Shown here piece after piece: positions 1-50,110 of a stretch of 50,110 nucleotides of DNA. The translations under genes were made by a program, and so were the position numbers. Under the pieces are notes generated by a model that did no database searches, was not told the DNA's origin, and worked only from the letters and a program-made list of their open reading frames with translations. Origin of the DNA: a virus; IMG/VR virus record IMGVR_UViG_3300001765_000072, positions 1-50,110 of that record. One strand, 5' to 3'. Position 1 is the stretch's first letter. The number at the start of each line of letters is the position of its first letter.

Positions 1-46
1 ATTTGGTACAGGGCCTTACTTAATCCTGTGGCTGTATCCGGTACCG
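1..46. repeat. Terminal direct repeat identical to 50065-50110 (assembly overlap of a circular or terminally redundant genome)
   Basis: Same 46-nt string atttggtacagggccttacttaatcctgtggctgtatccggtaccg at both window ends. Confidence 0.9.
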
Positions 47-347
47 TTTTACTTAATTCTACTACTTTGTCGCTTATCCCTTCGAAGTCGTCGGAAACCA
101 TACTAGATATGGTACTTACTTCCTTCATACTATGTTCGAATTCCTGGGAAAACAGGAAGGCTTTTTTAGCAGCCAGTCCGAAGGCCAGGCCAGCGCTTAC
201 CCCTACGCCAGCAAATACCTGTGAAGCCCCTACGCTTTTTTTCAGCCCTTCCAGTATTCCCTTACTTTCAGCGGCCCCGGTGCGAAGCCCTGAATTATCT
301 ACGCCAGTAGCCCAGTATAAAGGCTGGCCTTTTACGTTAACTGCCAT
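1..347 (-). CDS. Tape measure protein, N-terminal part (gene wraps the circular junction and continues at 50064)
   Basis: ATG at 347. Translation MAVNVKGQPLYWATGVDNSGLRTGAAESKGILEGLKK...FSQEFEHSMKEVSTISS...LSKALYQ is open to nt 1. 347 + (50064-46707+1) = 3705 nt = 1235 codons, in frame with the 46707-49949 ORF. Confidence 0.8.
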   Translation of the reverse strand, partial: MAVNVKGQPLYWATGVDNSGLRTGAAESKGILEGLKKSVGASQVFAGVGVSAGLAFGLAAKKAFLFSQEFEHSMKEVSTISSMVSDDFEGISDKVVELSKTVPDTATGLSKALYQ

Positions 348-357
348 AACTTTTAGA

Positions 358-522
358 TTAAATCATATTAAACAATTCAGCAGGGCCTATATCCTTACCC
401 TGGCCTTCCTTACCGGTACCTTCGTCTTTCCCGCGGTTAGCAAAAGGCGCCATTAACATAACCAGGTTTACCCAGCTATACTGCCATAAAACAGCTTCAA
501 AACTTAGGTTTAACGTCTTCAT
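358..522 (-). CDS. Small ORF in the -1 frame after the tail assembly chaperone (possible T-part of a G/GT-type chaperone pair)
   Basis: 54-codon ORF MKTLNLSFEAVLWQYSWVNLVMLMAPFANRGKDEGTGKEGQGKDIGPAELFNMI. Its frame stays open upstream to at least 660, overlapping the end of 531-1043. Confidence 0.4.
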   Translation of the reverse strand: MKTLNLSFEAVLWQYSWVNLVMLMAPFANRGKDEGTGKEGQGKDIGPAELFNMI

Positions 523-530
523 AGTTCCGC

Positions 531-1043
531 TTATAAATCCCCAGGGGTCGGCGGGGCTATTATCTCGGCCGCCTTTAGTAGGCTCATTCCGTTGGTTAGA
601 ATGATAGTACTCGTAAAATTTGAAACATCCATTAAACGTATAACCAGGCCCATTAAATCGAATAGCCTGGCAGAAGTACAGTTTTCCCTTATCTGTTTCT
701 TTATCGCTTCAGGTGCCGGGCCAGGCCGGTTGTGTATAGCCAGGGCTACCACTTCTACCAGGTCTTCGCCGTTCAGTACCGCGAATTTTACCGCGGTATC
801 CATATTACTACGTTCGAAGTCTAGTTTAGTTAGGTTAATTCTATGTAAAACCCTGCAAATTTGGTATAACGTGCCCAGGTTAATAGGTTTTACTGTATAA
901 ACCTTCGCCTTCGGTAAAACGCCTATTTTGCGTAAAAAACCGGGCCTATCGAAAACTATTTCTAGTTCCAGGGTTTCGCCCATTATAGCGGCTACCGCTT
1001 CAGGGGTTTGGTCTACTAGTATCTTTTCTTCTTCTTCTTCCAT
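531..1043 (-). CDS. Tail assembly chaperone (positional call)
   Basis: 170-aa acidic-N-terminus ORF between the major tail protein and the tape measure. Confidence 0.5.
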   Translation of the reverse strand: MEEEEEKILVDQTPEAVAAIMGETLELEIVFDRPGFLRKIGVLPKAKVYTVKPINLGTLYQICRVLHRINLTKLDFERSNMDTAVKFAVLNGEDLVEVVALAIHNRPGPAPEAIKKQIRENCTSARLFDLMGLVIRLMDVSNFTSTIILTNGMSLLKAAEIIAPPTPGDL

Positions 1044-1060
1044 TTTCCGTTTTTATTTTT

Positions 1061-1100
1061 AGTAAAAAGGGCCCAAACTAAAACATTAGCCGGGCCCCTT
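1061..1100 (-). terminator. Hairpin plus T-run after the major tail gene
   Basis: Minus strand AAGGGGCCC-17 nt loop-GGGCCCTTTTT. Confidence 0.45.
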
Positions 1101-1147
1101 CAACTTTAACCTAAAACTTAACCTATGAAAAAACGACTATTAAAAGT

Positions 1148-1675
1148 CTAAGGGTAAACTACCTGGGTTTTGGTGTAAGGCGGCAAAAGTATGCCAGCTG
1201 CACCTTCGGGTATTAGGGCCTTAATCGTAAACCGAATAGTACCGGCGGCGCCGCGTTGTAACGGTGCTACCAGGGCAGCTTTTACGCTGGCCCGCGGTAT
1301 TTCGATTTTTGTATAATACCCATTTACAGGCTTAGTTTTGATTTCTACAGATTTCTCCGTCATAACATCGGTAACAGGTGCTACATACTTTAGCGAAGTA
1401 GAAGCTACACCGCCGAAGGCTAGTACCATATTTTCCGGTGTCACGTTGTACGTTTCGAAGGTAAATACCAGCGCTTTACTGTCGGTAAGTGCTTCAAAAT
1501 CGGGGCTAGTGCTTTCTTCTATAAGAAGTTCGAAGGTTTCAGGTTCTGCCTTTTCGAGGTTTACGCTGTCGCGCTTCAATTTATCTACCGCCGTTAAGCT
1601 GCTTCCCATAGTTCCCAGGGAACCGCAGGCGCCTATCTTAATGGTTTCAATACCGTAAATTCTATTTATTGCCAT
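1148..1675 (-). CDS. Major tail protein (positional call)
   Basis: 175-aa ORF directly upstream of the chaperone/TMP pair and followed by a hairpin. Confidence 0.6.
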   Translation of the reverse strand: MAINRIYGIETIKIGACGSLGTMGSSLTAVDKLKRDSVNLEKAEPETFELLIEESTSPDFEALTDSKALVFTFETYNVTPENMVLAFGGVASTSLKYVAPVTDVMTEKSVEIKTKPVNGYYTKIEIPRASVKAALVAPLQRGAAGTIRFTIKALIPEGAAGILLPPYTKTQVVYP

Positions 1676-1680
1676 TGTGT

Positions 1681-2070
1681 TTACTCCGTATTATTGTCAT
1701 TAAAAACATTTACTAAAATTCTGACTGAATAGTAGGCCCAGCCCGGCCGGTCGTTGTTCATATACACCTGTTCGTCTACCAGGGTTGTACTGTAATTAGC
1801 TTCTATTATCGGTATCAATACTGAAGCCAGGGCCTTCATTCGTTTTTCGTTGGGCTGGCCGTCTTCCAGGTTCTGAAAATGGCAGTTAATAAAAACAGTA
1901 GCTTCCTGTACTTCGCCGTTTACGTTAGCCAGGCTAACTATTTCGACGTCTTCAGCGGCGCTGTTATCCTTCGCTTTGCTTCGGGTAACTTCGCCGGTTA
2001 TAAGGGCCTTTACTGCCTTTACGTTTACCATCCGGTAAACCATCGTTTTTATGTCTAGTATTGACTGCAT
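1681..2070 (-). CDS. Tail terminator / head-tail joining protein (positional)
   Basis: 129-aa ORF in the connector gene string, with overlapping start/stop to its neighbours. Confidence 0.4.
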   Translation of the reverse strand: MQSILDIKTMVYRMVNVKAVKALITGEVTRSKAKDNSAAEDVEIVSLANVNGEVQEATVFINCHFQNLEDGQPNEKRMKALASVLIPIIEANYSTTLVDEQVYMNNDRPGWAYYSVRILVNVFNDNNTE

Positions 2071-2498: not shown

Positions 2499-2788
2499 AC
2501 TTCGGCGTTCATTTGGTACTGTTGAACAAAAACTACGCGCAGCTGCTTACCGTTAACGGTTACCCTGGCCCCTTCAGGCAGGGTATCGGTAAAACAATCG
2601 GTAAAAAATTTGTATTCCACTTTTACCCTGTCGCCGCCAGCGCCGCCTACTGCTAGGCTGGGCGCTGCGCGATCTAGTCTACCTTCCAGGGCCAGGGTTT
2701 CGGCGGCGTTCGGCTTAGCGTAGCCGTCGTCGTCCTTCCTGGTACTGGCCCAGGTAAATAATAGGGTTATATTCCTAGTGGCTACCAT
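2486..2788 (-). CDS. Head closure / head-tail adaptor protein (positional)
   Basis: 100-aa ORF in the connector string. Confidence 0.4.
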   Translation of the reverse strand: MVATRNITLLFTWASTRKDDDGYAKPNAAETLALEGRLDRAAPSLAVGGAGGDRVKVEYKFFTDCFTDTLPEGARVTVNGKQLRVVFVQQYQMNAEVWLA

Positions 2789-3087: not shown

Positions 3088-3099
3088 TTGAAACAGGTA

Positions 3100-6286: not shown

Positions 6287-8404
6287 TTAAAGTTCTTCTA
6301 GTATAACGTCGTAAATATCAATATCATAATAATCAGGCCGTACTGTTCGCTTCGTAATAGATACTACCCTGAATTCGGTACCGTCAGCAAATAAAAACTC
6401 GTCTTCGTGTTTCAGCCCTACCGGCTTTACGCAGGTACTACTATGGCTGTTACGTATATACAGGTTTACGCTTACCGGCTGGCTGCTGTTCGCCCTGGCG
6501 AAGCTGTCGGCTACTTCCTTCTTAAAACTACTACTCATAAACCCGCTATCTATATGTACGCCAGTTTCGCCCCAGGCTTTCAGGTAGCGGCCTTCCATAC
6601 TTTCGCGCGTCGTTTTAAAGCCCCGGTACAGCTGGCCCTGGTACTTCGGCCCGGTCGCCAGGCCAGCGCGTATAAGGTTCGCGTAGTCGCCCATTTGTTC
6701 AGCCGTAAGCCGGTTCATACCGGCGCCGCCTGTACGTAGGTAGGTATTCAGGTTCGTATAGCCTGAACCGGTGTAATACGTAAACGCGCTTTTCATATCG
6801 GCAGTCATTTTATAACTCCACCACTCCGACAGGGTAAATGCTTCGTCAAAGTTCGTACTTACCGGCCAGCCGCCGGCCTGTACCATATGGTCAAAGTTCA
6901 TACCGGTAGCCTGTTCTACCTTCAGCTTAGCGGCTGCCAGCTTTTCGTTTAGGCCGACGGTTCCCATTTTATCTATGTACGCCTGCTGTTCCTGGGCCTT
7001 CTTCAGCTTTTCGGCCTTCTTAGCGGCCGCCTTCGCTTTCTTTTCGGCTGCCAGTTCCTTCTTTACCTGCTGTTCCCAGGCCAGTTTTTCAGCCTGGTAT
7101 TCGGCTTTCTTCTTTTCTTCGTTCGCCATCCATTTAGCTAGCGCGTCTTCTGAAGCCTTTTTACCGGCCGCGTATTCTGCCTGGGCCTTCTTCAGGTCTG
7201 CCGCTGCCTGGGCCGCCTTCTGTTCTGCCAGTACCTGGGCCTGGGCCGCCTTCTGTTTCGCGGCCAGTTCTTCTGCCAGGTTAGCGTACTGGCCCTTCGC
7301 CATCGGTATAGGCTTCGGTATATTCAGGCTAGCGGAACCGTAGTTAATCAGGCTAACGGCTACCGGGTTTATTAGCTTACTAGCCTGGCCCATAGCGTCG
7401 AAGTTCTGATTAAACCAGTAGGGCTTTTTAGCCATACCCTGTATTTTACCCAGCTTAGCGTTTAGGTAAACCTGGGCCTGCCGCGGTATGTCTTTAATGT
7501 ACTTATTTTCCTTAACATACCCGGCCTTCAGCGAAGCTATAAACTGGTCTTCCTTCAGTAGTATGTTTTCAGTCCAACAGATACAGCGCGGGTGCCAGCC
7601 TGGAAACCTGAAGCCTTTAGGGTATTCGCCGGCCATATAATCACAAATATCCTTCCGCGGGTGCGCTGCGCTTAAGTTTATCCGTACGCCAGTAACGAAG
7701 GGTATAGACTGCCGGCGCTGGTAGTCGCTTTCCCGGTATGCCATATTTATTTCGGTACCGGTCAGCCTTAAGGCGTTCTGAAAACTGCTACGGTATACGC
7801 CGCGGCCAGGGTGAAACGCTTTAGCGGCTTTACTTAGTTCCAGTTTCCCGGTTTCCTTATTTCGTACGCGTCGAAAAAGTTTATCAGGGTATTTTAGGTA
7901 CTGTTTGGTTTGGCTGGCTAGCTGCCTGGCTGGAAGGCCGGCGGCTATGCCTTCTGCTAGCGCTATTTCCAGCTGGGTTTTTGTTTTCGCGGTCAGGGCC
8001 CAAACCCTATCTGATAAATTCATACCGTCTACCTTCCGCTTTAAGAAGGTTTCCAGGGCTTCGCCGTTTCGGCCTAGCATTGCAGCGGCAATAGTCGGCG
8101 GTATATCCATACCGCGGGTATACTTCAGTACCAGCGCGTCGTTTGCCTGGTCTGCCAGGTTCCAGCCGACGTACGTACCCTGCTGTATCTTACTTACCAC
8201 TTCGTCGCCCATTACCCGCAGGCTTTCGTCTATCTGTTTTTCGAAGCCAGGGTTAACAGTCCATATACTTTGGGTCGCGCTTCCTTTAAGCTGGGCGCCG
8301 TAAACGATACCTTCTACTTTCGCCAGGTACTTATTCAGTTCCTTTTTCACCTGGCTAGCGTATGCCGCCTGGGCTTTCTGTAATTTTTCTTCGTACGGCG
8401 TCAT
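6287..8404 (-). CDS. Head morphogenesis protein (SPP1 gp7 / Mu F family) fused to an A/K/E coiled coil and a C-terminal R-S-E ADP-ribosyltransferase domain
   Basis: MuF signature GWHPRCICW. ART motifs YTGSGYTNLNTYLR, LYRG, GFMSSS (STS) and HEDEF (ExE, nt 6398-6406). Confidence 0.8.
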   Translation of the reverse strand: MTPYEEKLQKAQAAYASQVKKELNKYLAKVEGIVYGAQLKGSATQSIWTVNPGFEKQIDESLRVMGDEVVSKIQQGTYVGWNLADQANDALVLKYTRGMDIPPTIAAAMLGRNGEALETFLKRKVDGMNLSDRVWALTAKTKTQLEIALAEGIAAGLPARQLASQTKQYLKYPDKLFRRVRNKETGKLELSKAAKAFHPGRGVYRSSFQNALRLTGTEINMAYRESDYQRRQSIPFVTGVRINLSAAHPRKDICDYMAGEYPKGFRFPGWHPRCICWTENILLKEDQFIASLKAGYVKENKYIKDIPRQAQVYLNAKLGKIQGMAKKPYWFNQNFDAMGQASKLINPVAVSLINYGSASLNIPKPIPMAKGQYANLAEELAAKQKAAQAQVLAEQKAAQAAADLKKAQAEYAAGKKASEDALAKWMANEEKKKAEYQAEKLAWEQQVKKELAAEKKAKAAAKKAEKLKKAQEQQAYIDKMGTVGLNEKLAAAKLKVEQATGMNFDHMVQAGGWPVSTNFDEAFTLSEWWSYKMTADMKSAFTYYTGSGYTNLNTYLRTGGAGMNRLTAEQMGDYANLIRAGLATGPKYQGQLYRGFKTTRESMEGRYLKAWGETGVHIDSGFMSSSFKKEVADSFARANSSQPVSVNLYIRNSHSSTCVKPVGLKHEDEFLFADGTEFRVVSITKRTVRPDYYDIDIYDVILEEL

Positions 8405-9069: not shown

Positions 9070-10455
9070 TTAAATAGTAAAGCTTTCGCCCTTGCTGGCT
9101 TCTTCTTCTATTTCTTCCAGTTCGGCTATAGCGTCTTCTACCATCGGGTTTAACATTACGGCCGTTTTCTTACTCATAATACCAGCCTGTACGGCGCTTA
9201 CCAGGTTACTTATAACTTCGGTTTCGTCTATCGGTAGCGGTTCGTTATAGGCTACTTCTACCTTCAGCTGGCCCAGCGCCAGGGCTTTCTTAGCGTCGAA
9301 GAATGCTAACATTGCTTTTAAAACACTTATTCTGCGCGTCATACCGTCGTCGAACATATCGCGGTTAATTATGGCCTTTTGCGTCGCGCTCATAAATAAG
9401 AAGCGCATAGCTACGCCGCTAAGTTTCCCGGCTACGCCCTGCAATTTGTCAAAACTTAAATCCGGCGTGTCGCTTATACTATGTACGAATTCGCGCAGTA
9501 GTTCTATTTCCAGCTTGATAGCTTCCGGGGTCTGATCCCATGTAAGGTATTCGACGTCGCCCCAGGTGCCGCCGGTTCCCTGTTTCAGTTGAAACAATTT
9601 ACCTACTTCTTCCTTTTCAGGTGCGTTAATTATTTCGCCCCTTATTTTTACAGCCGGGCTGGCAAAGTAGTCGTTAGTATCATCAAATTTACTTAACCGG
9701 TCTTCCAGTTTTTCTATTAGGCCCTGTACGTCGTTCCAGTCAGGCGCCTGTATTTCGTAGTAAACTACCGGTATTTTCTTAAATGGGTTTACTTCCGTTT
9801 TCGTTACCCAGTCGGTACCTTCCAGGGTATTCGTTACCTTCTGTTCAGCGGTGTATATTTCCAGGGTATCTATTTTTACTTCGCTGCCGTCGTCATTAAC
9901 GTCTACCCTGGTAAACCGTCTAGTAAACGCGTCCATATCTCCCAGGTCGTCGAAATGCGGGTAAATGTAGTCGCCATTTTCCAGGCATAACAGCCGGGCC
10001 CTGGTTCTGTAGGCCGGGCCGCCTGGTAGCTTTTCGTTTTCCGGTATCGGCGCCTGGTAGAATAACGTAGCGGCCCTGGTTTCGATCAACAGCCGGCGGG
10101 CCAGGTTTTTGTTTATGGTATCTAGCTTCGCCTTATCCCATTCAGCTACTAGGTAGTCGTAGGCGTCGTTTAATGACTGTTCGGGCGCCAGGTTTTTCAT
10201 AACTAGCCTGGTACCGCCGCCGAATAAGAAAAATACGCTACTGTTAACGATTTTCTTCTGAAGCTTCAATACCAGCTTAGCCTGCGGTATTTCGCGCCTG
10301 TTGTTTTCGGGCCCTGCTATCTTAGGGGCTCTGTTTAAAATCTTATGTTCGCCGTCGTATTCTTTTACCGCGTTTAAAATGGTATCAGGGTAAGCCTTCG
10401 TTAAAATCTTAATTTGATTTTCAACAGGAAGGGTTAAAATATCTGCTATTAACAT
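9070..10455 (-). CDS. Portal protein
   Basis: 461 aa with an acidic C-terminus, immediately downstream of TerL and upstream of the MuF-type protein. Confidence 0.75.
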   Translation of the reverse strand: MLIADILTLPVENQIKILTKAYPDTILNAVKEYDGEHKILNRAPKIAGPENNRREIPQAKLVLKLQKKIVNSSVFFLFGGGTRLVMKNLAPEQSLNDAYDYLVAEWDKAKLDTINKNLARRLLIETRAATLFYQAPIPENEKLPGGPAYRTRARLLCLENGDYIYPHFDDLGDMDAFTRRFTRVDVNDDGSEVKIDTLEIYTAEQKVTNTLEGTDWVTKTEVNPFKKIPVVYYEIQAPDWNDVQGLIEKLEDRLSKFDDTNDYFASPAVKIRGEIINAPEKEEVGKLFQLKQGTGGTWGDVEYLTWDQTPEAIKLEIELLREFVHSISDTPDLSFDKLQGVAGKLSGVAMRFLFMSATQKAIINRDMFDDGMTRRISVLKAMLAFFDAKKALALGQLKVEVAYNEPLPIDETEVISNLVSAVQAGIMSKKTAVMLNPMVEDAIAELEEIEEEASKGESFTI

Positions 10456-10482: not shown

Positions 10483-11970
10483 TTAGAAAAAACCGTATTC
10501 TGCTTTAGTCTTTTTAACAACAGAAGGCGAAGGCCATACCGGCCAAAAACTTAAGGCCAGGCTATCTGCTTTGTCAGGGCTACAGCCCAGGCGCTTTTTT
10601 ATTTCGTCTTTAGGTTCTATTTGTATTTTCCCGGTACTGTTAAAAAAGTACTTCGGTTCTATAATCTGCGCCGCTAGTTCGTCGTCAGGCGGTAACATAG
10701 CGCCGGTTTCATTGGCCGGGTTTAACCAGTCGCGCAGGGCCCAGTAGCAATACGCCCGCAGGTTTATAAATTCCAGCTGGCCAGTTTGATCTTTGGGCGC
10801 GTCGCCCTGGCTAAATTTAGCGCTTACAGCCCATTCTACGCCCTGTTCGTACAGCCTAGAGTATACGCCAGCCCCTTCGCCTATCGTATCAATAAAGGCC
10901 GGCCCCTGGTTCCTGGTTACCCATTCCTTCAGCCAGCCAGCGGTCGCCATATGTACGCCGGCGTTCAGCGCGGCCAGTTCCGTTAAGTCCGGTACGTATT
11001 CGCCCTGGCGTTCGCAGATTATCGTACGGTCGCGGCCCATACCTGCAATATCGGCGCCCAGGCATTTTTTCCCGGTCAACAGGTACGGCGCCTTATGGAA
11101 GGCTAGCCAGCGCTGCTGCGCCATTTCTACCCAGCGCAGCGGTATTAACTTACTGGCTTCTTCGCGCGGAAATTCGCCCATTACCTTTATCAAAAAAATA
11201 TCATTAGGCCGGTAGTAGGCACCGTTCCAAACAAAATCATATTCTAGCGGGTTATAAACTTCTTCGCTTATCCTGGTAGTCCAGCCCGGCATTTTTACCC
11301 TTTCGTCTACCCAGTTAAAGTCTACCTGTCCTGGGTAAATAATCTTATTAGCCACTACGTTAGGCGCCTTTAAACTGTTCATATGGAATTTAACGTACTG
11401 CGGGCTGGTTTGGCTTTTATAAATTTCACCGCTGCGCTGGTTAGGATTAAATACCAGTACCAGGCGGCTATTACCCTGCAAAATACCTTCTACGGCGTTA
11501 AAAGTTGCCTGGTTTAAACCGCTGGCTTCTGTCATAACTACCATAATATTAGGGCTGTGAAACCCAGACCAGGCTTCGGTATTTTTGTCTTCAGCCTTAA
11601 ATCCAATTAAATAATGGTTTTTTTCCTTAAACCGGATACCGTTATCTAACATTCTACCGCCTACTGGAAAACGTGCATTCCTGTAAAGCCTGTCTATTTC
11701 AGGCATCATAATAAGCTTAACCTGCCTGTCAGTAGGGGCCGTATTTATAACCTTTGCCGGCCAGTTCAGGTATAAAAAGGCGTGGCCTGCTACGGCGGCC
11801 AGGAAGTCTTTACCCCGGCTAGTGCCACTACGTACGCTTACCCTTCGGTTAACCTGTATAGCCTTCAGTATGGCCTGTTGTTCGCTATCCAGGGTTACCC
11901 CTAGCGCTTCTGTAGCGTATAGGTTCCAGTCGCTACGCCATAGCCTTACGCGGTTAGTAATTTCGTTCAT
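10483..11970 (-). CDS. terL: Terminase large subunit
   Basis: Walker A-like SGTSRGKD and Walker B-like IMVVMTEAS. RNaseH-like nuclease motifs LGADIAGMGRDRT, IDTIGEGAGV and SPDKADSLALSF. Confidence 0.85.
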   Translation of the reverse strand: MNEITNRVRLWRSDWNLYATEALGVTLDSEQQAILKAIQVNRRVSVRSGTSRGKDFLAAVAGHAFLYLNWPAKVINTAPTDRQVKLIMMPEIDRLYRNARFPVGGRMLDNGIRFKEKNHYLIGFKAEDKNTEAWSGFHSPNIMVVMTEASGLNQATFNAVEGILQGNSRLVLVFNPNQRSGEIYKSQTSPQYVKFHMNSLKAPNVVANKIIYPGQVDFNWVDERVKMPGWTTRISEEVYNPLEYDFVWNGAYYRPNDIFLIKVMGEFPREEASKLIPLRWVEMAQQRWLAFHKAPYLLTGKKCLGADIAGMGRDRTIICERQGEYVPDLTELAALNAGVHMATAGWLKEWVTRNQGPAFIDTIGEGAGVYSRLYEQGVEWAVSAKFSQGDAPKDQTGQLEFINLRAYCYWALRDWLNPANETGAMLPPDDELAAQIIEPKYFFNSTGKIQIEPKDEIKKRLGCSPDKADSLALSFWPVWPSPSVVKKTKAEYGFF

Positions 11971-13413: not shown

Positions 13414-14316
13414 TTATAGGTTGTTTTTTATAAATGGAATTTTTCTAAATATATGCTTTATTACTTCAGTATTCCAGCCATTACCTACCATTATGTAGCG
13501 CTGCTGCGAAGAAGCGCCAGCGGTGTAGTTATCCGGTAAACTTTGCAGGCGTTCGCATTCTAGCGGGCTTAGTTTACGGTAGCCTATTTTTTCGCCTTGC
13601 TGCGCTTTGTATTTCGGGCTAACCGGGGCGCTTCCTTCGGGAAAATGTAGCACACCGTTACCGGCAGCCGTTACCCCTGAAGGTTCCATTACCAGTAAGC
13701 CTGTTTTATTCCGTTTTATCATACTCTTAGCGTTTTCTTTATAAAGGGTCGCTAAGATAGTTTGGCTTTTATCGCGTAAGGCTAGCCCTGATTCTAGTAC
13801 GTCCTGAAGCCTTACGAACTTGTTACCCGGCTGCTTTATCGGTAAATTAGTCCAAAACAATCGTTTCCTACTTTGACCTGATACCCGGCTAGCATCAATT
13901 TCAACAGGTATAACGCCTAGCGTCTTATTTATAACCGCTTCTATACTCTTAGGCATTTTTACATTTTCTAGCATCCAGTAAGTAGGGTTTACCTGCTCTT
14001 TTATCCTTACGAATTCAAAAAACAGCTTACTACGCGGGTCTTCAAAGTTTAAACCATTACCGGCTATACTAAAACCCTGGCAGGGTGAGCCACCTATCAA
14101 TAAATCTACAGGCCCTAATTTACTGGCGTCTAGTTTCGTTACGTCGCCCAGTTGTACGGTAGCGGGAAAATGCTTTTTAACAACATCCATAGAATGTTTA
14201 TGTATTTCGCTAGCGTAGTAAAGGTAATTCGTTAGCCCTAGCTGCTGAAGGGCTAGCTGGCCGGTACTTATACCGTCGAATGAAGACAATACAGTTATTT
14301 GCTTTTCGTTTTTCAT
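13414..14316 (-). CDS. DNA (cytosine-5)-methyltransferase, orphan
   Basis: Motifs SFDGISTG (I), GGSPCQGFS (IV), MLENVK (VI), QSRKRLF (VIII) and GNGW (X). No adjacent endonuclease. Confidence 0.85.
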   Translation of the reverse strand: MKNEKQITVLSSFDGISTGQLALQQLGLTNYLYYASEIHKHSMDVVKKHFPATVQLGDVTKLDASKLGPVDLLIGGSPCQGFSIAGNGLNFEDPRSKLFFEFVRIKEQVNPTYWMLENVKMPKSIEAVINKTLGVIPVEIDASRVSGQSRKRLFWTNLPIKQPGNKFVRLQDVLESGLALRDKSQTILATLYKENAKSMIKRNKTGLLVMEPSGVTAAGNGVLHFPEGSAPVSPKYKAQQGEKIGYRKLSPLECERLQSLPDNYTAGASSQQRYIMVGNGWNTEVIKHIFRKIPFIKNNL

Positions 14317-18360: not shown

Positions 18361-18527
18361 ATTCCCAGGGTGCCCTGTGGCGTCTTCTGCTGTTCCAGGG
18401 TAATTAACAGGCGGTCTACTATCTGTTCCTGGGCCTTGCTTTTTCTTAGCGTTTCCTGGCTGCGGCTTCGGAAGTATTCTTTTTGCAGGCGTCGCATTTC
18501 TTTTACTGCTTCTATTAGTTCCTTCAT
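18357..18527 (-). CDS. Hypothetical helical mini-protein (56 aa, not in the track)
   Basis: MKELIEAVKEMRRLQKEYFRSRSQETLRKSKAQEQIVDRLL...; ATGA overlaps at both ends. Confidence 0.4.
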   Translation of the reverse strand: MKELIEAVKEMRRLQKEYFRSRSQETLRKSKAQEQIVDRLLITLEQQKTPQGTLGI

Positions 18528-19180
18528 AATTGTATTATTAACTGTGATTTATGTGTATTAAACCGCTGTAAGGCGTCCTGATAGTATTCAGTATCAATTT
18601 CACACCAATCTAAAGAAAAACCTAGATTGTGGCAGGCTATACATATCGAACCACTACCGCCGTGTGTATCTAGTATTTTGTCGCCGGGTTTGGCGTAATT
18701 GTTTAAAATCCAGTGGTATAAATCAACAGGCTTTTCCGTCGGATGAATTCTGTTTATTTGATGCTTTTTCTTAAATCCAGCCCATAAGTAATTGAACATA
18801 TTACACTTAATATCGAAAGAAGACCAAGCTAGTTCAGCCATTGATAAATGTTCTTTAATGTCTGCTTCTTTATTCCATACTATCCAACCGCTTTTAGGTT
18901 TTAGATATTCCGTAAAATAATTCCCACCCCATATAATTTGGTTTTTAGATACTCTAAATAGTTCATTAAAATAGGATTTATCAGGTATTTTACTATCGTC
19001 GAACGTTTTATAATGACGGCTTAATGGGTTTTTCCATTTTACTGTGGGTCTATCACCTGTTGCATTCCTTTGGCCATTTTCACCTATTCCATACTGGGGG
19101 TCAACTATTGCCAGATCATAAAATTTATTTGGCTTGTCCTTCATAAATTCCATACAGTCAGTATTCAGCATATTTATCAT
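18524..19180 (-). CDS. DNA amino-methyltransferase (N6-adenine or N4-cytosine), beta class, orphan
   Basis: DPQYGIG (DPPY-like motif IV) lies N-terminal to HPTEKP and LDTHGGSGS (motif I). Confidence 0.8.
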   Translation of the reverse strand: MINMLNTDCMEFMKDKPNKFYDLAIVDPQYGIGENGQRNATGDRPTVKWKNPLSRHYKTFDDSKIPDKSYFNELFRVSKNQIIWGGNYFTEYLKPKSGWIVWNKEADIKEHLSMAELAWSSFDIKCNMFNYLWAGFKKKHQINRIHPTEKPVDLYHWILNNYAKPGDKILDTHGGSGSICIACHNLGFSLDWCEIDTEYYQDALQRFNTHKSQLIIQL

Positions 19181-34253: not shown

Positions 34254-34554
34254 ATTTTTTCCTTTCGTTATATATCTCAATATCCTGAAGGGTTAACTGG
34301 TACTTCAGTTCCAGGGCTACCTTACCCATTTCGTCAGCCTGGCGCTTGTAGTGCGCGGCGCTGTCTGCCATTGCTTTAGTATTAGCGTTAAGACTATCGG
34401 CCTGTACCTGGTAGTCTACCGCGGCTGTTTTTACCTGTTTGGATTGAACGTAAATATATACGCCCATACCTATAACCAATAACAGAAGGAAGGCGTTAAC
34501 GTATACGCCCAGCTTTTCCGTAAAGGTCTTCGACTCTTTTAATTGTATTTGCAT
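34168..34554 (-). CDS. N-terminal-TM coiled-coil protein (i-spanin-like architecture)
   Basis: One TM (VNAFLLLLVIGMGVYIYV) followed by a helical region; lies downstream of the endolysin. Confidence 0.45.
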   Translation of the reverse strand: MQIQLKESKTFTEKLGVYVNAFLLLLVIGMGVYIYVQSKQVKTAAVDYQVQADSLNANTKAMADSAAHYKRQADEMGKVALELKYQLTLQDIEIYNERKKYEKASNRIKLLSADSTYAVFSEFTRSNR

Positions 34555-35113
34555 ATGCTTTAACCATTTGTTGTTTTCCGCTGGCGCTTAACATTAGCCG
34601 GCAGTCCTTCGGGTTATCCATAAAAAAATTCTCCAACAGCAGGGCCGGGCATTTCGTTTTCGGCAGTATAGAAAAGGCGTCGCTTTCTTTATCCGCGTCG
34701 CCGTCGAAAAAATCGGTACGCATTTTTTCACCTGGAAACGCTAGGCTGAATTCCGTAAAGAAAAAAGGTACTAGTTTATCGCTGGCCGTTTCGCCCTTCG
34801 AAGTCCAAATTTCCCAGCCAGTACCGCCGCCGGCGTTACCGTGGAAGCTTAACAATATACAGGGTTCCGCTTTGGCTAGCCGGTTAACGCGTATAATCCT
34901 TTCGGTTATACTTATGTCTTCCTGTTCCGGTACCAGTATGGTATATTTAACGCCCATGGTTTTAAGTTCCAGGCCCAAAAGGTAAACTACCTGCCTGTTA
35001 AAAACGCCTTCAAATAACTGCGGTAAATCAGGCCATACAGGCGAACGCTTACCAGGTGTTACGTATACCCCATTAACTAGGCCGCCGTGGCCGTTGTCTA
35101 GTATCCAGTTCAT
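34496..35113 (-). CDS. N-acetylmuramoyl-L-alanine amidase (Amidase_3) endolysin
   Basis: LDNGHGG...GKRSP, ERIIRVN and LLSFHGNAGGGTGWEIW match Amidase_3 Zn-ligand regions. Confidence 0.8.
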   Translation of the reverse strand: MNWILDNGHGGLVNGVYVTPGKRSPVWPDLPQLFEGVFNRQVVYLLGLELKTMGVKYTILVPEQEDISITERIIRVNRLAKAEPCILLSFHGNAGGGTGWEIWTSKGETASDKLVPFFFTEFSLAFPGEKMRTDFFDGDADKESDAFSILPKTKCPALLLENFFMDNPKDCRLMLSASGKQQMVKAYANTIKRVEDLYGKAGRIR

Positions 35114-35433
35114 TTTTTCAATGGATTAAAAAGGTTAATACTCTTACTTATATTTTTTCCCAGGCTACCGCAGCCCAGGCCAATAAACAGGCCCAGTATA
35201 TCAGGCGGGGCTGGCTTAGTGAAAATATTATAACCGCGTACGCTTATGTACGCGGCCAGGGTAATTAATAACCAGGCTAAAACCCAGCCCAGGGCCTGGC
35301 GCTTTATAAACTCTACCAGGGTAAACCCTTTAACTTTCTTAGCCAGTACTATTTTAGTTACCAGGTGTATCAGGAAACCATAAGCGCAAAAGGGTAACAT
35401 TCCAAAAAACAGCGCCCAGTTTATCGCTTCCAT
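35110..35433 (-). CDS. Holin candidate (3 TM)
   Basis: 107 aa with three hydrophobic helices and a basic C-terminus, immediately upstream of the endolysin. Confidence 0.5.
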   Translation of the reverse strand: MEAINWALFFGMLPFCAYGFLIHLVTKIVLAKKVKGFTLVEFIKRQALGWVLAWLLITLAAYISVRGYNIFTKPAPPDILGLFIGLGCGSLGKNISKSINLFNPLKK

Positions 35434-35436
35434 ATG

Positions 35437-35844
35437 CTAAAATTTAAAGATTATTTTAACTAAAACACTCACTAGAATAGCTACGACGCCGGCAGCTATA
35501 GAATAAAAAAGGGCCCTGTTACTCATAGCGTTCTTTAGTTTTTCTTCCAGGGTCGCCAGCGCGGTACTGTTTTCGCCGCCGTGTTTAACGCTAGATAATT
35601 GGCAGTTACCAAACTCTTTTTTTAAGTCAGATAGGCTTTTATTATAGCTTTCTAGCGCACTTTTTAACTGCGAAAGTTCAGATACCAGGGTTTGTACCGT
35701 TGCTGTCATTTTTTGGATTTCTTCTATTTGTCCGCGCATTCTCTCTACTTCGTCCTGTAACATTTCTAAGCCTTGCAATACAGCTCTACCGTACTCATTC
35801 CATTCGAATACTACCGGTTGCGTGTTTAGTGTTTTCTTCGCCAT
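35437..35844 (-). CDS. Coiled-coil protein with C-terminal TM anchor
   Basis: 135 aa, ending ...LFYSIAAGVVAILVSVLVKIIFKF. Confidence 0.5.
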   Translation of the reverse strand: MAKKTLNTQPVVFEWNEYGRAVLQGLEMLQDEVERMRGQIEEIQKMTATVQTLVSELSQLKSALESYNKSLSDLKKEFGNCQLSSVKHGGENSTALATLEEKLKNAMSNRALFYSIAAGVVAILVSVLVKIIFKF

Positions 35845-36291: not shown

Positions 36292-37563
36292 TTAAGCCAG
36301 GCCATTAATGTTAAGTATACTACTAACAGCTAGCCCTTTAATATTACTAATACTAGATAAAGCTAAACCGTTCCTATTTGAAACAGAAGCTGGGCCCGAA
36401 GGGGTGTAGGTGCAATACAAACTTAACCTTAAGGTGTCGTATCCTTCCGGCACCAAAGGGTTAGGCCAGGTAGGGTATGTTATCCCTGATTGATCCCAGG
36501 TATCAGATCCACTAACGCCGCCGGTATCCATTTTAATTTCGTATAAATTACCGTTATCTATAAGCGCTACGTAATAATTAGTAGCTGTTATGGTAGGCCC
36601 TGAAGTTATAGTAAAATCTTTCCAGCTATAGGTAGTACTGGAAGTACTAATAGCGCCCGACTGCGGGGAAAGTGGGGCTAGCGTGGAAAGTAAATAAATT
36701 GCTGCTCTTACTTCTACCGTCATACCGTAAGCGCTTCTATAATGGGCGCTAATACTATTAACTACACCGCCGGCCGCGGCAGTTCCCTTTTGTGCGAATA
36801 TACCAGGGCCGCCGAATATTGTACTACTAGCCCCTATACTACTATACCCCAAAGTTAACCCGGCCGCGTGTTTTACCGGGTAAACGGCCTTTTTTAAAAA
36901 GCTTTCCGGTATGGTAACCGTTAAAAGCCCTTTTACTTCATCAATATTTAAAACGCCATAAACCCATGCCCCGGTAGCGTCTTCAATCCTGGGCCGGTAA
37001 ATATGGAAAGCCTTACCATTTTTATACAACTTACCGCCCGCTATGTTTTCGGGGCAATCTTTATAATAAACAGCGTAACTACCTACTACGCCTTCGGGCC
37101 TGTTATGGCCCTTTAAAACATCTGATTTACTTAATGGCCCCTGGTATAGAAATTCCAGCCCTTTAGTTTGTAAGGTAAAGGCCACTACATTACTGGCCGG
37201 GGCTTCGTTTAATATTACTTCGAATTCGTAACCGCCTTCGGGTAAAATTTCGCTGGCTGGAAGTTCGTAAAATCTTATTTCCCTTTTATCTGTTTTCCAG
37301 GTAATGGCATCGTTTAAGGTTCCTACTATTGGTACCCCTAAATTTTCATCTATTAGCCTGGCTGAAAAATTTACTTCGTTATCCCACCGTTGCAGCTTAA
37401 CCTGCGGGTAAAAATCTGCCTGTTTAGCGTCGCCTACTTCTACGGTAAGTAAATTCCTGGCGTCGCTTAATACCGTTTTAGAAAAGGTGTTTTCTACTAT
37501 TTGGTAATTTTCTTTTACCTGCTGGCCTATCCTGGTCAGGTCTATAGCTGTATTTAATCCCAT
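36292..37563 (-). CDS. Distal tail fibre / receptor-binding protein candidate
   Basis: 423 aa, last gene of the fibre string, AT-richer than its flanks. C-terminal short repeats NGLALSSISNIKGLAVSSILNINGLA. Confidence 0.5.
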   Translation of the reverse strand: MGLNTAIDLTRIGQQVKENYQIVENTFSKTVLSDARNLLTVEVGDAKQADFYPQVKLQRWDNEVNFSARLIDENLGVPIVGTLNDAITWKTDKREIRFYELPASEILPEGGYEFEVILNEAPASNVVAFTLQTKGLEFLYQGPLSKSDVLKGHNRPEGVVGSYAVYYKDCPENIAGGKLYKNGKAFHIYRPRIEDATGAWVYGVLNIDEVKGLLTVTIPESFLKKAVYPVKHAAGLTLGYSSIGASSTIFGGPGIFAQKGTAAAGGVVNSISAHYRSAYGMTVEVRAAIYLLSTLAPLSPQSGAISTSSTTYSWKDFTITSGPTITATNYYVALIDNGNLYEIKMDTGGVSGSDTWDQSGITYPTWPNPLVPEGYDTLRLSLYCTYTPSGPASVSNRNGLALSSISNIKGLAVSSILNINGLA

Positions 37564-46720: not shown

Positions 46721-49700
46721 TTGCGCGAAGTTGGTTTGCTGTTTCGTTCGTTCCCAGGCGCTGGTTAATCTCTACCAGCAGCTTTAAATAGGCCGTATTG
46801 CTAGCTATCTGCTTAAGTACTACCAGGCTGTCTTTATTTACTTCCAGCTGGTTCTGAATGTTTATCCGCATATTACCCAGCTGGCCGGCCATAAGGTTAG
46901 CGGTATCTTCGGTTATGCCTTTAATGGCACCGGCCAGGCCCTGGCCGTTACTACCGGTAGCGTCAGCTGCTGCCAGGCTTAGCCCGCTTATTTTTTCCAG
47001 CTGGGCGAAGTTGTCGCCTGCTGTTTGCAGGGCTGCCATATACTGCGCGCGAAGGGCCGTAATTTCATCAGGCGTTAATTCATTACCGCTTACGCTAGCT
47101 TCCGTAAAAGCCTTGTAAAAGTCGTCTATACCAGCCAGCAGTACCTTCTGTTTAAAGCTTTCTAGTAGCGCGTTTTTCATTAGCCCTTCGAAGGTATCGG
47201 CGAAAACTTCTGAAGGGTTTTTGCCGGCTGCGAAGCCCTGTATAATACCGTCGGCTATGCTTTCGGCCGTCGTTTTCGTCAGGCTTTCCGCTAGCCTGTC
47301 GTACGTGGCCTTCGCGTCGGCGTAACTTTGGGCCAGGTCGTCTTTTTTACCCTGGCGTCTTTCGGTATTCCGCTTTTCGGCTAGTTTGTCGTATTCAGCC
47401 TGGTAAAGCTTCATTTTTTCTAATTCCAGTTCCATTAACAGCGCCGTACTAGCAGACTGTTCAGCGTAACCTAGCGCTATTTCATTCTGCGCCTTCGAAG
47501 AAGCTACACTTAACCGAAGTAGGCCCATTTGGTATTTATCGAATAAACTAGATAGCTGGCTTACCATAGTAGACCATTTTTTTACCTGGCTGGTTCCAGC
47601 GTCGGCCAAACCGCCCAGTATATCACCGCTTAAAACCTTACCGGCGGCCCCTGTCATTTCGCTAAACTGCGAAAAAAGGCTATCTATAGCGGGGCTATCT
47701 ACGCCTAAACTATCCATCGTTGCCTTTATACTGTTGGCTATTACCTGGGCCCCTACTAAAATGGTTTGTATGTTCGCCAGGTGTAGCCGTTCTGTCGCTT
47801 CTAGTTTCGCCTTTTGGGTCTTAGCGTCTTCAATTTCTTTTTTTAATACCTGCCTGTGGTTAACCAGCTGGGTAATATTCATACCCTGAAGGTACCGCTG
47901 GTACTGGCTGGCGTTTTTTTGCTGCTTTTCGTACCAGTCAATCTGTATATTTTCCAGCCTGCTAACGTATTCGAAATAGTCAATTTCACCGGTGCTATAA
48001 CTCTTAAGAAGGGCCTGGCGCTGTTGTTCCAGCTGGCCGTCCTGGGCCGCCTGGGCCATTTTTACCCGCTTCTTCTGCGCTTCTTCAGCTAGTGTAAGTT
48101 CGTCTTTTAACAGGGTATCCCAGCTAGCGCGCTTTTCTTTATTAGCGGTATCGGTTATAACCTTTTCGCTTTCTACTATCTGCTGTTCCTGGGCTAGCTG
48201 CCTGTCTGCCTTCGTTTTTTCCAGGGTAACTTCTTCCAGGCTGGCGTCTTTACCGTACTTCTTCAGTAGGGCTATTAGTTTTTCCTGGGCTTCTACTTCA
48301 ATGTCGAATAAATCGCGCTCTAGTTTTATCTTACTGGCTCTTTCCTGTTCCGCGCTAATTTGTTCCAGTACCTTTTCAACTTCTATTTTTTTCTTACCCA
48401 GTTCCAGGGCTTTATCCAGGTCTACTTCGGCTTTGGGTTTATCCGGTGTAATGTTGTCAGCGCTAGATTTTATTTGTATTTCGGTTATGGAAGCCAGTAT
48501 TTTTTCATACGCCGCGTTTAACTGGCCCAGTTCCGCGTCAGTTTTAGCTATTTCGGCGGGTAAATTACGGTTTTCCTTCGGGGCGAAGGCGTCGGTTACC
48601 AGCCCCACTTTTTTAAGCCTGGACTGCTGGTCTTCCAGTTCCATTTGCTTAGTGGTTATCTGTTCGTAAAGCTTAGCGGCTACGCGTTCGCGGGCCATCA
48701 GTTCTATACGTTCCCTTACCCTTTTGTTTATAACCGCGTAGGCTTCTGCGCTGGCCTGTATGTAATTCGTTTCGGTTAACAGGTTCGGTAAGAATTCGCC
48801 GTAGCTGCTGTTTATTTCGTCTATGGTTTTCTTCCGGTCTTCCTGGCTGGTCTTCGCGTTCCGCAGGCGTTCAAAAAGTATATCCAGTTTTGAAATTTCG
48901 TTACCTATTTCCTGGTTCGCTTCGCGCTGGGTTTCCTTCAGTACTTCATTCGTATTTATGTATTCCTTATGCCTTTTGGTAAGGGCTGCTATAGCCATAC
49001 CCAGGGCCACTACTACGCCTATCGCTGCGCCGACTACGTTAGCCTTCATAGCGACGTTCGCGGCCTTCTGCGCGGCTGTCATAGTTACCATGGAAGCTGT
49101 TAGCTTTTTAGTGGTGTTACTAAGGGCTTCTTCCGCTAACATTATACGCCAGGTAACCGCTTCCTTAATCTTAGCTATAATTATACCAGCGTTCATAATA
49201 CCGTTAAAAAGAATAGCGGCCGCCTTCGAAGTCGCCCAGGCTATACCCAGTATTTTTATAACCGTCGCCAGGGCGCCCAGGCTCTTAACTATTTTGGTTA
49301 CGGTGCCGTCGTCGAAGGCTTTATTTAGGCTTACCAGTAACTTACTGGCCTGGCCTAGCAGCGCGTCGCCCAGGGGCTTAAGTTCAGCGTTTACGTTATT
49401 GGCTAGTACCTTCCGCTGGTTGGTAAAGCTTTCCATCATTTTTTTATATGCCACTTCCGCGCTACCGGTGCCCGCTTTGATATTCGCCAGGGCTTCCGCG
49501 AACTTTTCGCCGTTTTCGCCTGCTATAGAAAGTACGCCAGCCAGCCCTTCTACGTTCGGGAAAAGTTTAGCTATCGTATCTATGTTACCGCCGGTTTTCT
49601 TCATCAGGTCGGCCATAAAACCGCCCAGGCCCTTAGTTTTTATGGCTGCTACGTCAAACTGAATTCCTAGCTTTTCGGCCTGTTCTGTCGCTTCCTTCGC

Positions 49701-50110
49701 CGGCTTAATTACGCTGGTTAACATACCGCGCATAGCTGAAGTAAAAATATCGGTTTTCAGGGTTTTGGTTCCCAGCGCGTAGGCCGCTGCCAGGTCGTCG
49801 AAGGCCAGGCCAGCCTGCGCCGCTATACCGGTTACGTTCGTAATGGCCGGCGCTATTTCTCTCATACTGGTTTTACCCAGGCGAACAATGGTAAAAAGCC
49901 TATCCATTATGTCGGCCGTGTTACCCGCGCTGGCGCCGTAGGCGTTCATAATTCCAGTTAACGCGTCGGCCGTGGTAAAGGTATCAGTTACGCCTGCTAC
50001 AGCTCCGTGGGCTGATACCGTTAGTATATCTAAAGCCTGGGCGCTATCGTACCCGGCGCTTACTATTTGGTACAGGGCCTTACTTAATCCTGTGGCTGTA
50101 TCCGGTACCG
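46707..50110 (-). CDS. Tape measure protein, main body (total 1234 aa when joined to 1-347)
   Basis: Very long alpha-helical, coiled-coil-rich ORF with hydrophobic segments, sitting between the tail chaperones and Dit. The frame stays open upstream of the M at 49949 to the window end. Confidence 0.85.
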   Translation of the reverse strand, partial: VPDTATGLSKALYQIVSAGYDSAQALDILTVSAHGAVAGVTDTFTTADALTGIMNAYGASAGNTADIMDRLFTIVRLGKTSMREIAPAITNVTGIAAQAGLAFDDLAAAYALGTKTLKTDIFTSAMRGMLTSVIKPAKEATEQAEKLGIQFDVAAIKTKGLGGFMADLMKKTGGNIDTIAKLFPNVEGLAGVLSIAGENGEKFAEALANIKAGTGSAEVAYKKMMESFTNQRKVLANNVNAELKPLGDALLGQASKLLVSLNKAFDDGTVTKIVKSLGALATVIKILGIAWATSKAAAILFNGIMNAGIIIAKIKEAVTWRIMLAEEALSNTTKKLTASMVTMTAAQKAANVAMKANVVGAAIGVVVALGMAIAALTKRHKEYINTNEVLKETQREANQEIGNEISKLDILFERLRNAKTSQEDRKKTIDEINSSYGEFLPNLLTETNYIQASAEAYAVINKRVRERIELMARERVAAKLYEQITTKQMELEDQQSRLKKVGLVTDAFAPKENRNLPAEIAKTDAELGQLNAAYEKILASITEIQIKSSADNITPDKPKAEVDLDKALELGKKKIEVEKVLEQISAEQERASKIKLERDLFDIEVEAQEKLIALLKKYGKDASLEEVTLEKTKADRQLAQEQQIVESEKVITDTANKEKRASWDTLLKDELTLAEEAQKKRVKMAQAAQDGQLEQQRQALLKSYSTGEIDYFEYVSRLENIQIDWYEKQQKNASQYQRYLQGMNITQLVNHRQVLKKEIEDAKTQKAKLEATERLHLANIQTILVGAQVIANSIKATMDSLGVDSPAIDSLFSQFSEMTGAAGKVLSGDILGGLADAGTSQVKKWSTMVSQLSSLFDKYQMGLLRLSVASSKAQNEIALGYAEQSASTALLMELELEKMKLYQAEYDKLAEKRNTERRQGKKDDLAQSYADAKATYDRLAESLTKTTAESIADGIIQGFAAGKNPSEVFADTFEGLMKNALLESFKQKVLLAGIDDFYKAFTEASVSGNELTPDEITALRAQYMAALQTAGDNFAQLEKISGLSLAAADATGSNGQGLAGAIKGITEDTANLMAGQLGNMRINIQNQLEVNKDSLVVLKQIASNTAYLKLLVEINQRLGTNETANQLRANGNV
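50065..50110. repeat. Second copy of the 46-nt terminal repeat
   Basis: Exact match to 1-46. Confidence 0.9.

Follow-up and report, generated by a model that had tools for sequence, protein, structure and literature searches.

Avoidance of many short, long and gapped sequence words in a complete phage genome, a probable imprint of restriction targets

Loss of GATC and CATG from a complete phage genome

The IMG/VR virus record IMGVR_UViG_3300001765_000072 was analysed over positions 1 to 50,110 (hereafter the window, meaning this whole stretch of 50,110 nucleotides) for the short sequence words that are missing from it. A direct repeat of 46 bp at the two ends (1-46 = 50065-50110) closes the contig into a circle, and the record is a complete phage genome from a microbial mat, with about 50,064 bp of unique sequence. 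It matches contig MIS_10000245 of a Joint Genome Institute (JGI) metagenome (3300002026), in an assembly seen in 3 samples with 1 mismatch in 21.5 kb, and an independent Logan assembly of SRR931349 is identical to it over 6 kb. Usable single-nucleotide polymorphisms were sought across the independent assemblies of the phage and none were found, the sequences being essentially identical. The phage is siphovirus-like, tailed and uncultivated. Its genes include those for a terminase, an SPP1-type portal, an E-type capsid protein, a tape measure and tail proteins, as well as an Amidase_3 endolysin, recombination genes, exonucleases, an SbcC-like ATPase, a resolvase and two DNA methyltransferases (MTases). 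No anti-restriction or base-modification genes were recognised among the annotations of the window, nor any tRNA gene or Rfam element, and no integrase was seen.

1..50110, genes nearly all on the - strand: whole phage genome, with word avoidance in every gene and in intergenic DNA
Starts 2671, 9534, 10084, 10788, 19114, 20689, 26788, 29577, 31755, 36492, 36506, 39692, 43466: the 13 GATC, by exact count
Starts 9539, 12723, 20737, 27854, 34955, 36965, 39477, 49089: the 8 CATG, by exact count

The 13 GATC and 8 CATG had been found by hand in a preliminary description of the sequence, and exact counting returned identical positions, none missed and none extra. Base composition predicts 194.6 copies of each, so that the observed/expected ratio (o/e) of GATC is 0.07 and that of CATG 0.04. 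The figure of more than 10-fold given at that time is valid against base composition only; under stricter nulls the two words are still depleted. With a maximal-order Markov expectation, 13 GATC are compared with 36.0 (0.36, z ~-3.8) and 8 CATG with 69.6 (0.11, z ~-7.4). In a further null, synonymous codons were permuted genome-wide, which leaves each protein and the codon totals unchanged (hereafter the codon null); the expected numbers were then ~60.5 for GATC (0.21, z -8.8) and ~98 for CATG (0.08, z -12.3).

Much of the shortage of GATC follows from GA/TC (0.59) and GAT/ATC (0.38) being scarce in general. Words sharing trinucleotides with the two sites were nevertheless far less affected under the codon null (0.42-1.08): for GATC these were GATA (1.08), GATT (0.72), CGAT (0.71), TGAT (0.63) and GATG (0.42), and for CATG they were CATA (1.05), CATT (0.93), CCAT (0.91) and GCAT (0.47). 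The depletion is therefore site-specific. It is also found outside genes, as the 3.8 kb of intergenic DNA contain no GATC and no CATG, where 13.8 of each are expected. Other four-base palindromes had been described as common, and this was correct for GGCC (493), CCGG (380), GCGC (315), CGCG (253), GTAC (305), AGCT (223), ACGT (163), TTAA (459) and AATT (262), but TCGA (99, o/e 0.51) and TGCA (58, 0.30) are lower. CATATG is not avoided, as had been stated (11 against 13.5 expected).

All 13 surviving GATC lie in coding sequence and are synonymously removable, nine of them consisting of an Asp GAT codon followed by a codon starting with C. On the sense strand each of the 8 surviving CATG is followed by G (CATGG), and 4 of them form CCATGG; RCATGY, ACATGT, TCATGA and GCATGC are absent. 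A dependence on the flanking base was considered for these CATG sites and set aside, the pattern being only marginally non-random given the codon preferences. Restriction avoidance, put forward from the start for the two sites, is still the best explanation of their loss, which goes beyond codon and trinucleotide bias, is seen intergenically and is lineage-specific (see below).

Depletion of trinucleotides, codons and longer words

The effect had first been described as distinct from any dinucleotide bias and as concerning two sites only. This proved wrong in scope: GA/TC, CA/TG, GAG/CTC and CAC/GTG are all strongly skewed, and near-elimination extends to at least 15-18 contiguous words and over 20 gapped motifs, among which GATC and CATG are minor. 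Dinucleotide o/e in the window is 0.59 for GA/TC, 0.67 for CA/TG and 1.35 for TA. Among trinucleotides it is 0.38 for GAT/ATC, 0.53 for CAT/ATG, 0.26 for CAC/GTG and only 0.06 for GAG/CTC (0.23 under the codon null). GAG/CTC is depleted in 16 of the 16 NGAGN contexts, to 0.00-0.17 of expectation, with GAGG, CGAG and GGAG reduced more than the remaining contexts. TTC/GAA (1.35) and CAG/CTG (1.51) are enriched despite containing depleted dinucleotides.

Codon usage is extreme, consistently over all genes, in a genome of 47% guanine plus cytosine (GC). GAA makes up 97% of Glu codons and CTC 2 of the 1,427 Leu codons (0.1%), and CAG is preferred though GAG is avoided. Ile is encoded by ATA in 62% and by ATC in 5% of cases, Val by GTA in 69%, GTC in 3% and GTG in 5%. 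For Ser, the TCN codons amount to ~6% each and AGC/AGT are favoured; NGA codons are rare. C is otherwise preferred at the third base (GCC 39%, GGC 49%, ACC 48%, AAC 66%). The choices track dinucleotide rules across codon boundaries, T being avoided before C or G, and C or G before A. Counted over 44 kb, 420 of the 4,096 hexamers (~10%) are absent from the window, against 19 in lambda, 152 in Bacteroides phage B40-8 and 21 in the codon-permuted window.

Longer words were likewise lost. Against the maximal-order Markov expectation, we counted 3 CCAGA/TCTGG for 95, 1 CCCGT/ACGGG for 50, 1 CASTG for 32, 2 TGGCCA for 24, 1 AGGCCT for 20, 0 CCCGGG for 12 and 7 GAWTC for 30. A panel of ~140 classic recognition sequences was then scored against the codon null, and the outcome was bimodal, a near-zero group standing apart from a normal group, as expected if only some specificities had been present. 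The near-zero group (observed/expected) includes CYCGRG (0/19.4), GGWCC (0/45.6), CCTC (2/94.6), CTCAG (1/51), GGGAC (1/39.7), GAGTC (1/20.5), GGCGGA (1/19.8), GACCGA (0/14.4), CCTNAGG (0/9.2), CCWWGG (6/39.8), GANTC (8/56.6), CCAGA (3/80), CCCGT (1/63) and CASTG (1/52). AGCT, GTAC, ACGT, CTAG, GCWGC, GTNAC, ACNGT, CAGCAG, AGACC and CCCGC are normal, at 0.9-1.3. The enzyme names MboI, NlaIII, MnlI, AvaI/II and TspRI, which we take to be the REBASE prototypes for avoided words, serve as labels only.

Some words are in excess. CCWGG occurs at 533 sites, one per 94 bp, which is 6.5 times the number predicted by base composition and 2 times that of the codon null. RCCGGY (208), GCCGGC (70), GGCGCC (58) and GGCC (493) are also strongly over-represented, and RGCGCY is enriched. 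The excess of CCWGG, GCCGGC, GGCGCC, RCCGGY and GGCC is probably due either to the squeeze exerted by neighbouring forbidden words or to protection of these sites by the C5-MTase of the phage.

13414..14316, - strand: C5-cytosine DNA methyltransferase, 300 aa (PF00145, E 2e-39; TIGR00675)

The best solved-structure matches of this enzyme are the catalytic domains of DNMT3A/B (E 5e-27), ahead of M.HhaI and M.HaeIII. It may be the reason why GGCC, CCGG, GCGC, CGCG and CCWGG escape avoidance.

Avoidance of gapped words at single spacings

All combinations of two 3-mers separated by a gap were scanned, the null for each pair of half-sites being its frequency at other gaps. At P<1e-6 the window yielded 37 bipartite matches, of which 20 had a gap of at least 4, compared with at most 1 in any codon-permuted copy, none in lambda and 7 in B40-8. 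For CAG and CTG, the both-strand counts along the gap profile are 62, 40, 62, 2, 62, 54, 44, 54, 36, 36, 48 and 80, the 2 being that of CAGN4CTG, and a single site is left:

9741..9750, no strand assigned: sole remaining CAGN4CTG (CAGGCGCCTG), where other spacings of the two half-sites predict ~25 sites

Other minima are as sharp and confined to one gap: GAAN5CTG (5/47), CGAN6CTG (1/27), GAAN6TGG (3/32) and GACN4CTG (0/16). Under the codon null, CCAN6TGG (1/11.9) contrasts with CCAN5TGG (19/12.8), and GAAN4TTC stands at 1/15.5. Avoidance at one spacing cannot be produced by mutation or codon bias.

When the half-sites are read toward the spacer, GAA takes part in 8 matches, CAG in 7, AAG in 4 and CCA in 3, and their complements TTC, CTG, CTT and TGG in 0. 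Such a layout, with A in one half and T in the other, is that of known Type I sites. Motifs were termed Type I-like when two half-sites of 3-5 bp, the 5' one with an A and the 3' one with a T, flank a fixed non-specific spacer of ~5-8 bp; the window motifs have this form, although in some of the matches the spacer has 4 bp, less than is usual. Type I sites are built of two 3-4-bp half-sites with adenine methylation, and phase-variable Type I systems with such half-sites are widespread in Bacteroidetes (PMC7641763).

Distribution over the two strands and along the genome

Asymmetric words are missing from the sense strand in either orientation: CCAGA (1/38) and TCTGG (2/42), CCCGT (0/19) and ACGGG (1/44), CTCAG (1/25) and CTGAG (0/25), GAGG (0/52) and CCTC (2/42), with GGGAC likewise near zero. 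The target must therefore be duplex DNA and not mRNA, and an RNA-level target (mRNA interferase or Cas13-type) was rejected for the clear motifs on this ground. The intergenic DNA is purged too, with 1 CTC for 38 expected. Along the genome, GAG/CTC depletion is uniform over the 71 open reading frames (ORFs), at ~1.9 per kb against ~31 expected.

Related phages and the host

10483..11970, - strand: large terminase, used for placement of the phage

Terminase homologues at 45-54% identity sit mainly in Bacteroidota genomes. Isolated phages gave a best protein identity of 31% and no megablast match, and the best protein match among 5.8 billion (61%) lies on a 4-kb contig with only a faint skew. 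No Shine-Dalgarno (SD) sequence is present before any - strand ORF start, GGAG/GAGG being nearly absent genome-wide, and the upstream regions are A-rich, with ~60% A at -14 to -11. Because of the distribution of the terminase homologues and of these SD-less, A-rich initiation regions, the host is probably a member of the Bacteroidota. The Bacteroidota -7 promoter motif TAnnTTTG showed no enrichment in the window (29 against 46 expected). A TTTAACC-like motif lies ~20 nt upstream of many starts, with 23 of its 29 copies on the sense strand; its overall count is not significant.

A cyanobacterial host had been a candidate, prompted by the code 'MIS' (Middle Island Sinkhole cyanobacterial mat) and by the avoidance of AvaI, AvaII and NspI-type sites. 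It was dropped as the leading idea: the genomes published for MIS Phormidium phages differ from this one, 0 cyanobacteria were found among 80 terminase loci, the family being mainly of Bacteroidota, and the initiation regions are SD-less and A-rich.

Word avoidance was then compared with that of 71 loci of Bacteroidota phages or prophages carrying a terminase of the same family. Like the window, and independently of it, these commonly avoid multiple palindromes, with o/e below 0.2 for GATC in 29 loci, CGCG in 27, GGCC in 15, CCGG in 10 and CATG in 8. Each lineage avoids its own set of 4-bp palindromes, and single loci lose up to 9 four-mers. The loss of GATC and CATG is thus ordinary for this phage family. 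In the terminase relatives L003-L005 (51-57%) the two sites are normal or mildly low (GATC 0.59-1.22, CATG 0.78-1.30). Conversely, the window keeps CGCG, GGCC, CCGG and CTAG (o/e 0.86), the last being below 0.2 in 57 of the 71 loci. What the related loci do not share is the depletion of GAG/CTC (0.06 in the window, at least 0.55 in the others), CCTC (0.01, at least 0.61) and CAC/GTG (0.26, at least 0.62), or the excess of TA (1.35, at most 1.00). The GAG/CTC purge was also absent from ~75 further viral loci of IMG/VR, reached via fibre and endolysin homologues.

Other uncultivated phages or prophages are strong avoiders in their own way. L152 (IMGVR_UViG_3300045988_043865) has o/e values of 0.02 for GATC, 0 for GGWCC, 0.05 for CCAGA, 0 for CCWGG, 0.07 for GGCC and 0 for CTAG. 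In L063, 9 four-mers are lost, CCAG, CCGG and GGCC among them, and L046 and L049 are further strong multi-site avoiders with different sets.

Probable selection against restriction targets, and alternatives

The depletion holds under three nulls, acts on the duplex in coding and non-coding DNA, and is specific for sites and for the lineage. These statistics, the structure of the motifs, the both-strand symmetry of the clear ones and the specificity of spacing and lineage are direct observations, and the motif structure, spacing specificity, duplex symmetry, non-coding depletion and lineage specificity argue together for selection against restriction targets. We consider it probable that a very large set of host restriction-type nucleases, by long-lasting selection against the sequences that they recognise, has given the genome its present form; that restriction-modification systems were the selective agents, and which ones, is what we infer. 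Site avoidance is an established anti-restriction strategy (PMC6286503; PMC12707154), and a passage of the review reports that the probability of escape increases with each site removed (PMC12707154, citing Pleska & Guet 2017). Every unmethylated target in incoming DNA would be a separate chance of cleavage, and each target lost, mostly by synonymous mutation, would multiply the odds of survival on entry into a host whose modification the phage DNA does not carry.

The words purged in this way would comprise 4-bp palindromes (GATC, CATG), 5-6-bp palindromes (GGWCC, CYCGRG, CASTG, GANTC, AGGCCT, TGGCCA, CCTNAGG, CCWWGG), asymmetric words like those of Type IIS, IIG or III enzymes (CCTC, CCAGA, CCCGT, CTCAG, GGGAC, GAGTC, GGCGGA, GACCGA) and Type I-like bipartite sites (CAGN4CTG, GAAN5CTG, CGAN6CTG, GAAN6TGG, GAAN4-7TTC, CCAN6TGG). 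The extreme codons, the TA excess, the CCWGG and GGCC excess and the loss of SD-like GGAG/GAGG would be by-products of confinement to the allowed words. For instance, a ban on TCTGG leaves C, A or G as the base before CTGG. The loss of GAG/CTC would most simply reflect a target or half-site common to many systems or specificity variants. GAA and CAG behave as hub half-sites with many partners, and GAG could conjecturally be another, its partners so numerous that wholesale removal was worthwhile.

Several points weigh against this interpretation. The avoidance is incomplete, as the 13 GATC and 8 CATG survivors could all have been removed synonymously. No avoided word was matched to an actual enzyme, the host being placed at the level of the Bacteroidota only. 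We know of no restriction enzyme that recognises a bare 3-bp GAG/CTC, yet all 16 contexts are depleted. Pure selection on duplex sites predicts no strand asymmetry, and there is one: on the sense strand, TC at codon junctions is at 0.27 and GA at 0.73, CTC is found 9 times for 176 expected and GAG 87 times for 250, and in intergenic DNA TC is at 0.36 and GA at 0.65. CA (0.52) and TG (0.53) are equal at codon junctions, TA is at 1.66, and TT (1.60) differs from AA (1.13). Further words are biased on the sense strand, with CATC at 2/30 against GATG at 70/142, and CTACCC at 0/8.6 against GGGTAG at 10/11.7. Unequal coding constraint, a Type III-like escape by orientation, strand-biased deamination or an RNA-level nuclease are possible causes of the asymmetry, and an RNA-level nuclease is conceivable only as a contributor to the sense-strand deficit of TC relative to GA. 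Finally, the Type I-like reading runs counter to earlier work: in phages surveyed systematically, Type I and IIG sites were not avoided, and Type III sites hardly ever (PMC6286503).

Part of the strand asymmetry is what a context-dependent mutation bias would leave. Deaminase-like changes (TC->TT, CA->TA, i.e. GA->AA, TG->TA), possibly biased by transcription or replication strand, would by themselves make TC, GA, CA and TG scarce and TT, AA and TA abundant, with no site under selection. Each of the four depleted dinucleotides lies one C>T or G>A transition away from an enriched one, and TC below GA with TT above AA on the sense strand is the outcome of strand-biased deamination. Such a bias is nonetheless an unlikely explanation of the whole, as it can yield neither the spacing-specific avoidance of gapped motifs nor the removal of 5-6-mers relative to the maximal-order Markov expectation (CCAGA 3/95, CCCGT 1/50, TGGCCA 2/24). 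The dinucleotides are not depleted in all flanking contexts either, TTC/GAA (1.35) and CAG/CTG (1.51) being enriched; the GC content is 47%, and most codon families favour C at their third position, contrary to what strong C>T pressure would bring about. A translational cause, with codon usage mirroring an unusual tRNA pool or preference of the host and the word deficits as side-effects, would fit a codon bias that is extreme and the same in all genes, in a phage without tRNAs of its own. We hold it to be highly improbable. With codons and proteins fixed, GATC remains at 0.21, CATG at 0.08, GGWCC at 0/46 and GAG/CTC at 0.23; intergenic DNA is equally deficient and asymmetric words are lost in both orientations; codon choice follows dinucleotide rules across boundaries and not a family-wise tRNA logic; and the pattern is missing from the related phages in Bacteroidota genomes. 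As to an artefact, a mis-assembled, chimeric or non-natural sequence is next to inconceivable: the near-identical sequence was obtained in the JGI and the independent Logan assemblies, the contig closes on itself through its 46-bp overlap, the phage modules are intact and syntenic with homologues elsewhere, and among the points examined none supported this reading.

Two further explanations concern chiefly the shortest words. GAG/CTC is at least 6-fold down in 16 of the 16 contexts, which suggests a 3-bp unit, and there is a small chance that it reflects a non-classical defence of short specificity, whether a 3-bp cutter or nicker, a BREX, DISARM or phosphorothioate-type system, or a phage-encoded nuclease that degrades host DNA and that the phage itself would have to resist. 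CCAGA, CCCGT, GGCGGA and GACCGA resemble BREX or Type III/IIG-type motifs, and nicking enzymes with 3-base sites occur in chlorella viruses. Against this, no bacterial restriction activity specific for 3 bp is known to us, and no candidate was seen among the annotated phage genes, many ORFs carrying no annotation. The other is depletion of protospacer-adjacent motifs (PAMs) of clustered regularly interspaced short palindromic repeats (CRISPR) systems, acting on GAG/CTC and perhaps CAC/GTG beside restriction avoidance of the longer words. It would leave fewer protospacers to be targeted or acquired. PAMs are motifs of 2-5 nt read on duplex DNA in either orientation, which fits a 3-mer deficit on both strands, and their depletion has been reported in phages (PMC4246573). 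We find it very unlikely here. By our weighing, the gain per copy removed (~1,500 copies) would be tiny compared with the multiplicative escape from restriction; the reported depletion is weak beside the 16-fold found here; and the further depletion of GAGG, CGAG and GGAG suggests that longer, nuclease-type targets are superimposed.

Comparison with known systems

Selection against restriction targets in phages is a known kind of phenomenon, of which the window is an extreme variant, exceptional in scale. Restriction-site avoidance in bacteriophage genomes was reportedly described by Sharp in 1986 and Karlin in 1992. As in the phages surveyed since (Rusinov et al. 2018, PMC6286503; review PMC12707154), palindromic Type II targets are lost by selection, in a lineage-specific way, on duplex DNA and in coding and non-coding sequence; in the survey the effect was stronger in phages without lysogeny functions. 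Unlike in those phages, the motifs, at least 15-18 contiguous and more than 20 gapped, include asymmetric and Type I-like bipartite ones, classes which the survey found not to be avoided, or eliminated in less than 0.5% of cases (PMC6286503). The reduction of GAG/CTC to 6%, the remodelling of codon usage and initiation regions and the ~10% of missing hexamers also set the window apart. The breadth, the asymmetric and Type I-like targets and the trinucleotide purge with its consequences for codons and initiation are not reported in the survey literature consulted (PMC6286503).

One of our controls bears on the Type I-like motifs. In the isolated Bacteroides phage B40-8 (NC_011222), TCAN7TGA, a Type I-like gapped palindrome, occurs 0 times for 24 expected from other spacings. 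Avoidance of bipartite sites thus does occur in an isolated Bacteroidota phage, with far fewer motifs than in the window (7 bipartite matches against 37). The likeness to PAM depletion (Kupczok & Bollback 2014, PMC4246573) is that very short motifs are down on both strands, as the footprint of an evasion of immunity; the difference is that the effects reported there are modest, and that the 16-fold loss in the window stands amid a restriction-like spectrum of motifs.

That this is the first clear example of a phage adapted to the whole restriction repertoire of a host population, Type I-like targets and a half-site-level purge of GAG/CTC included, is a rather doubtful proposition. If it were true, it would imply a hypervariable family of adenine-methylating restriction systems with a common GAG-reading domain, or an undescribed 3-bp-specific defence nuclease; the list of missing words would be a readable imprint of the pan-immune specificities of the host, and immune evasion could take precedence over codon usage, the choice of amino acids and ribosome-binding sequences alike. 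If the missing words match methylation motifs of co-occurring Bacteroidota, the restriction repertoire of a host could be deduced from phage sequence alone, which would aid host assignment of uncultivated viruses, and the view that phages do not avoid Type I-type targets would be overturned. The GAG/CTC purge would point to modular Type I/III specificity families or to an unknown short-motif nuclease. For engineering, the genome offers a natural, functional example nearly devoid of restriction sites, and for textbook restriction-site avoidance it shows how far the process can go.

Methyltransferase, fibre, lysis and head genes

Three of the GATC sites had been thought to lie in recently imported genes, namely the second MTase gene and an ORF in the fibre position (36292-37563).

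18524..19180, - strand: beta-class N6/N4 DNA methyltransferase, 218 aa (PF01555, E 3e-12)

The C-terminal part of this MTase is similar to M.MboIIA, CcrM and M1.HpyAVI. Its gene has the lowest GC of the genome (0.35), the highest density of CAC/GTG and GA, and one GATC. The case for import is weak, as the low-GC MTase gene is itself purged of GAG/CTC and the fibre-position ORF has an ordinary density of forbidden words. The densest residual cluster of forbidden words lies instead in the lysis cassette:

34496-35113: amidase (Amidase_3)
35110-35433: multi-transmembrane protein, 107 aa, adjoining the 135-aa lysis gene
35437..35844, - strand: lysis-cassette protein, 135 aa, with a coiled coil and a C-terminal transmembrane segment

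The segment 35437-35844 has 8 forbidden words per 500 bp for 1.5 expected (P 2e-4), mostly GAG on the sense strand and with no GATC or CATG, and probably marks the latest exchange in the genome, with the least amelioration since. Apart from this modest patch, a search for recently imported islands gave none.

6287-8404, - strand: head-module protein, 705 aa, with a C-terminal domain like that of ADP-ribosyltransferase exotoxins (PF03496, E 1e-11)

This last protein may be an injected effector. The same architecture, a head protein joined to an ADP-ribosyltransferase, is also present in L005, the relative with 57% identity in terminase.

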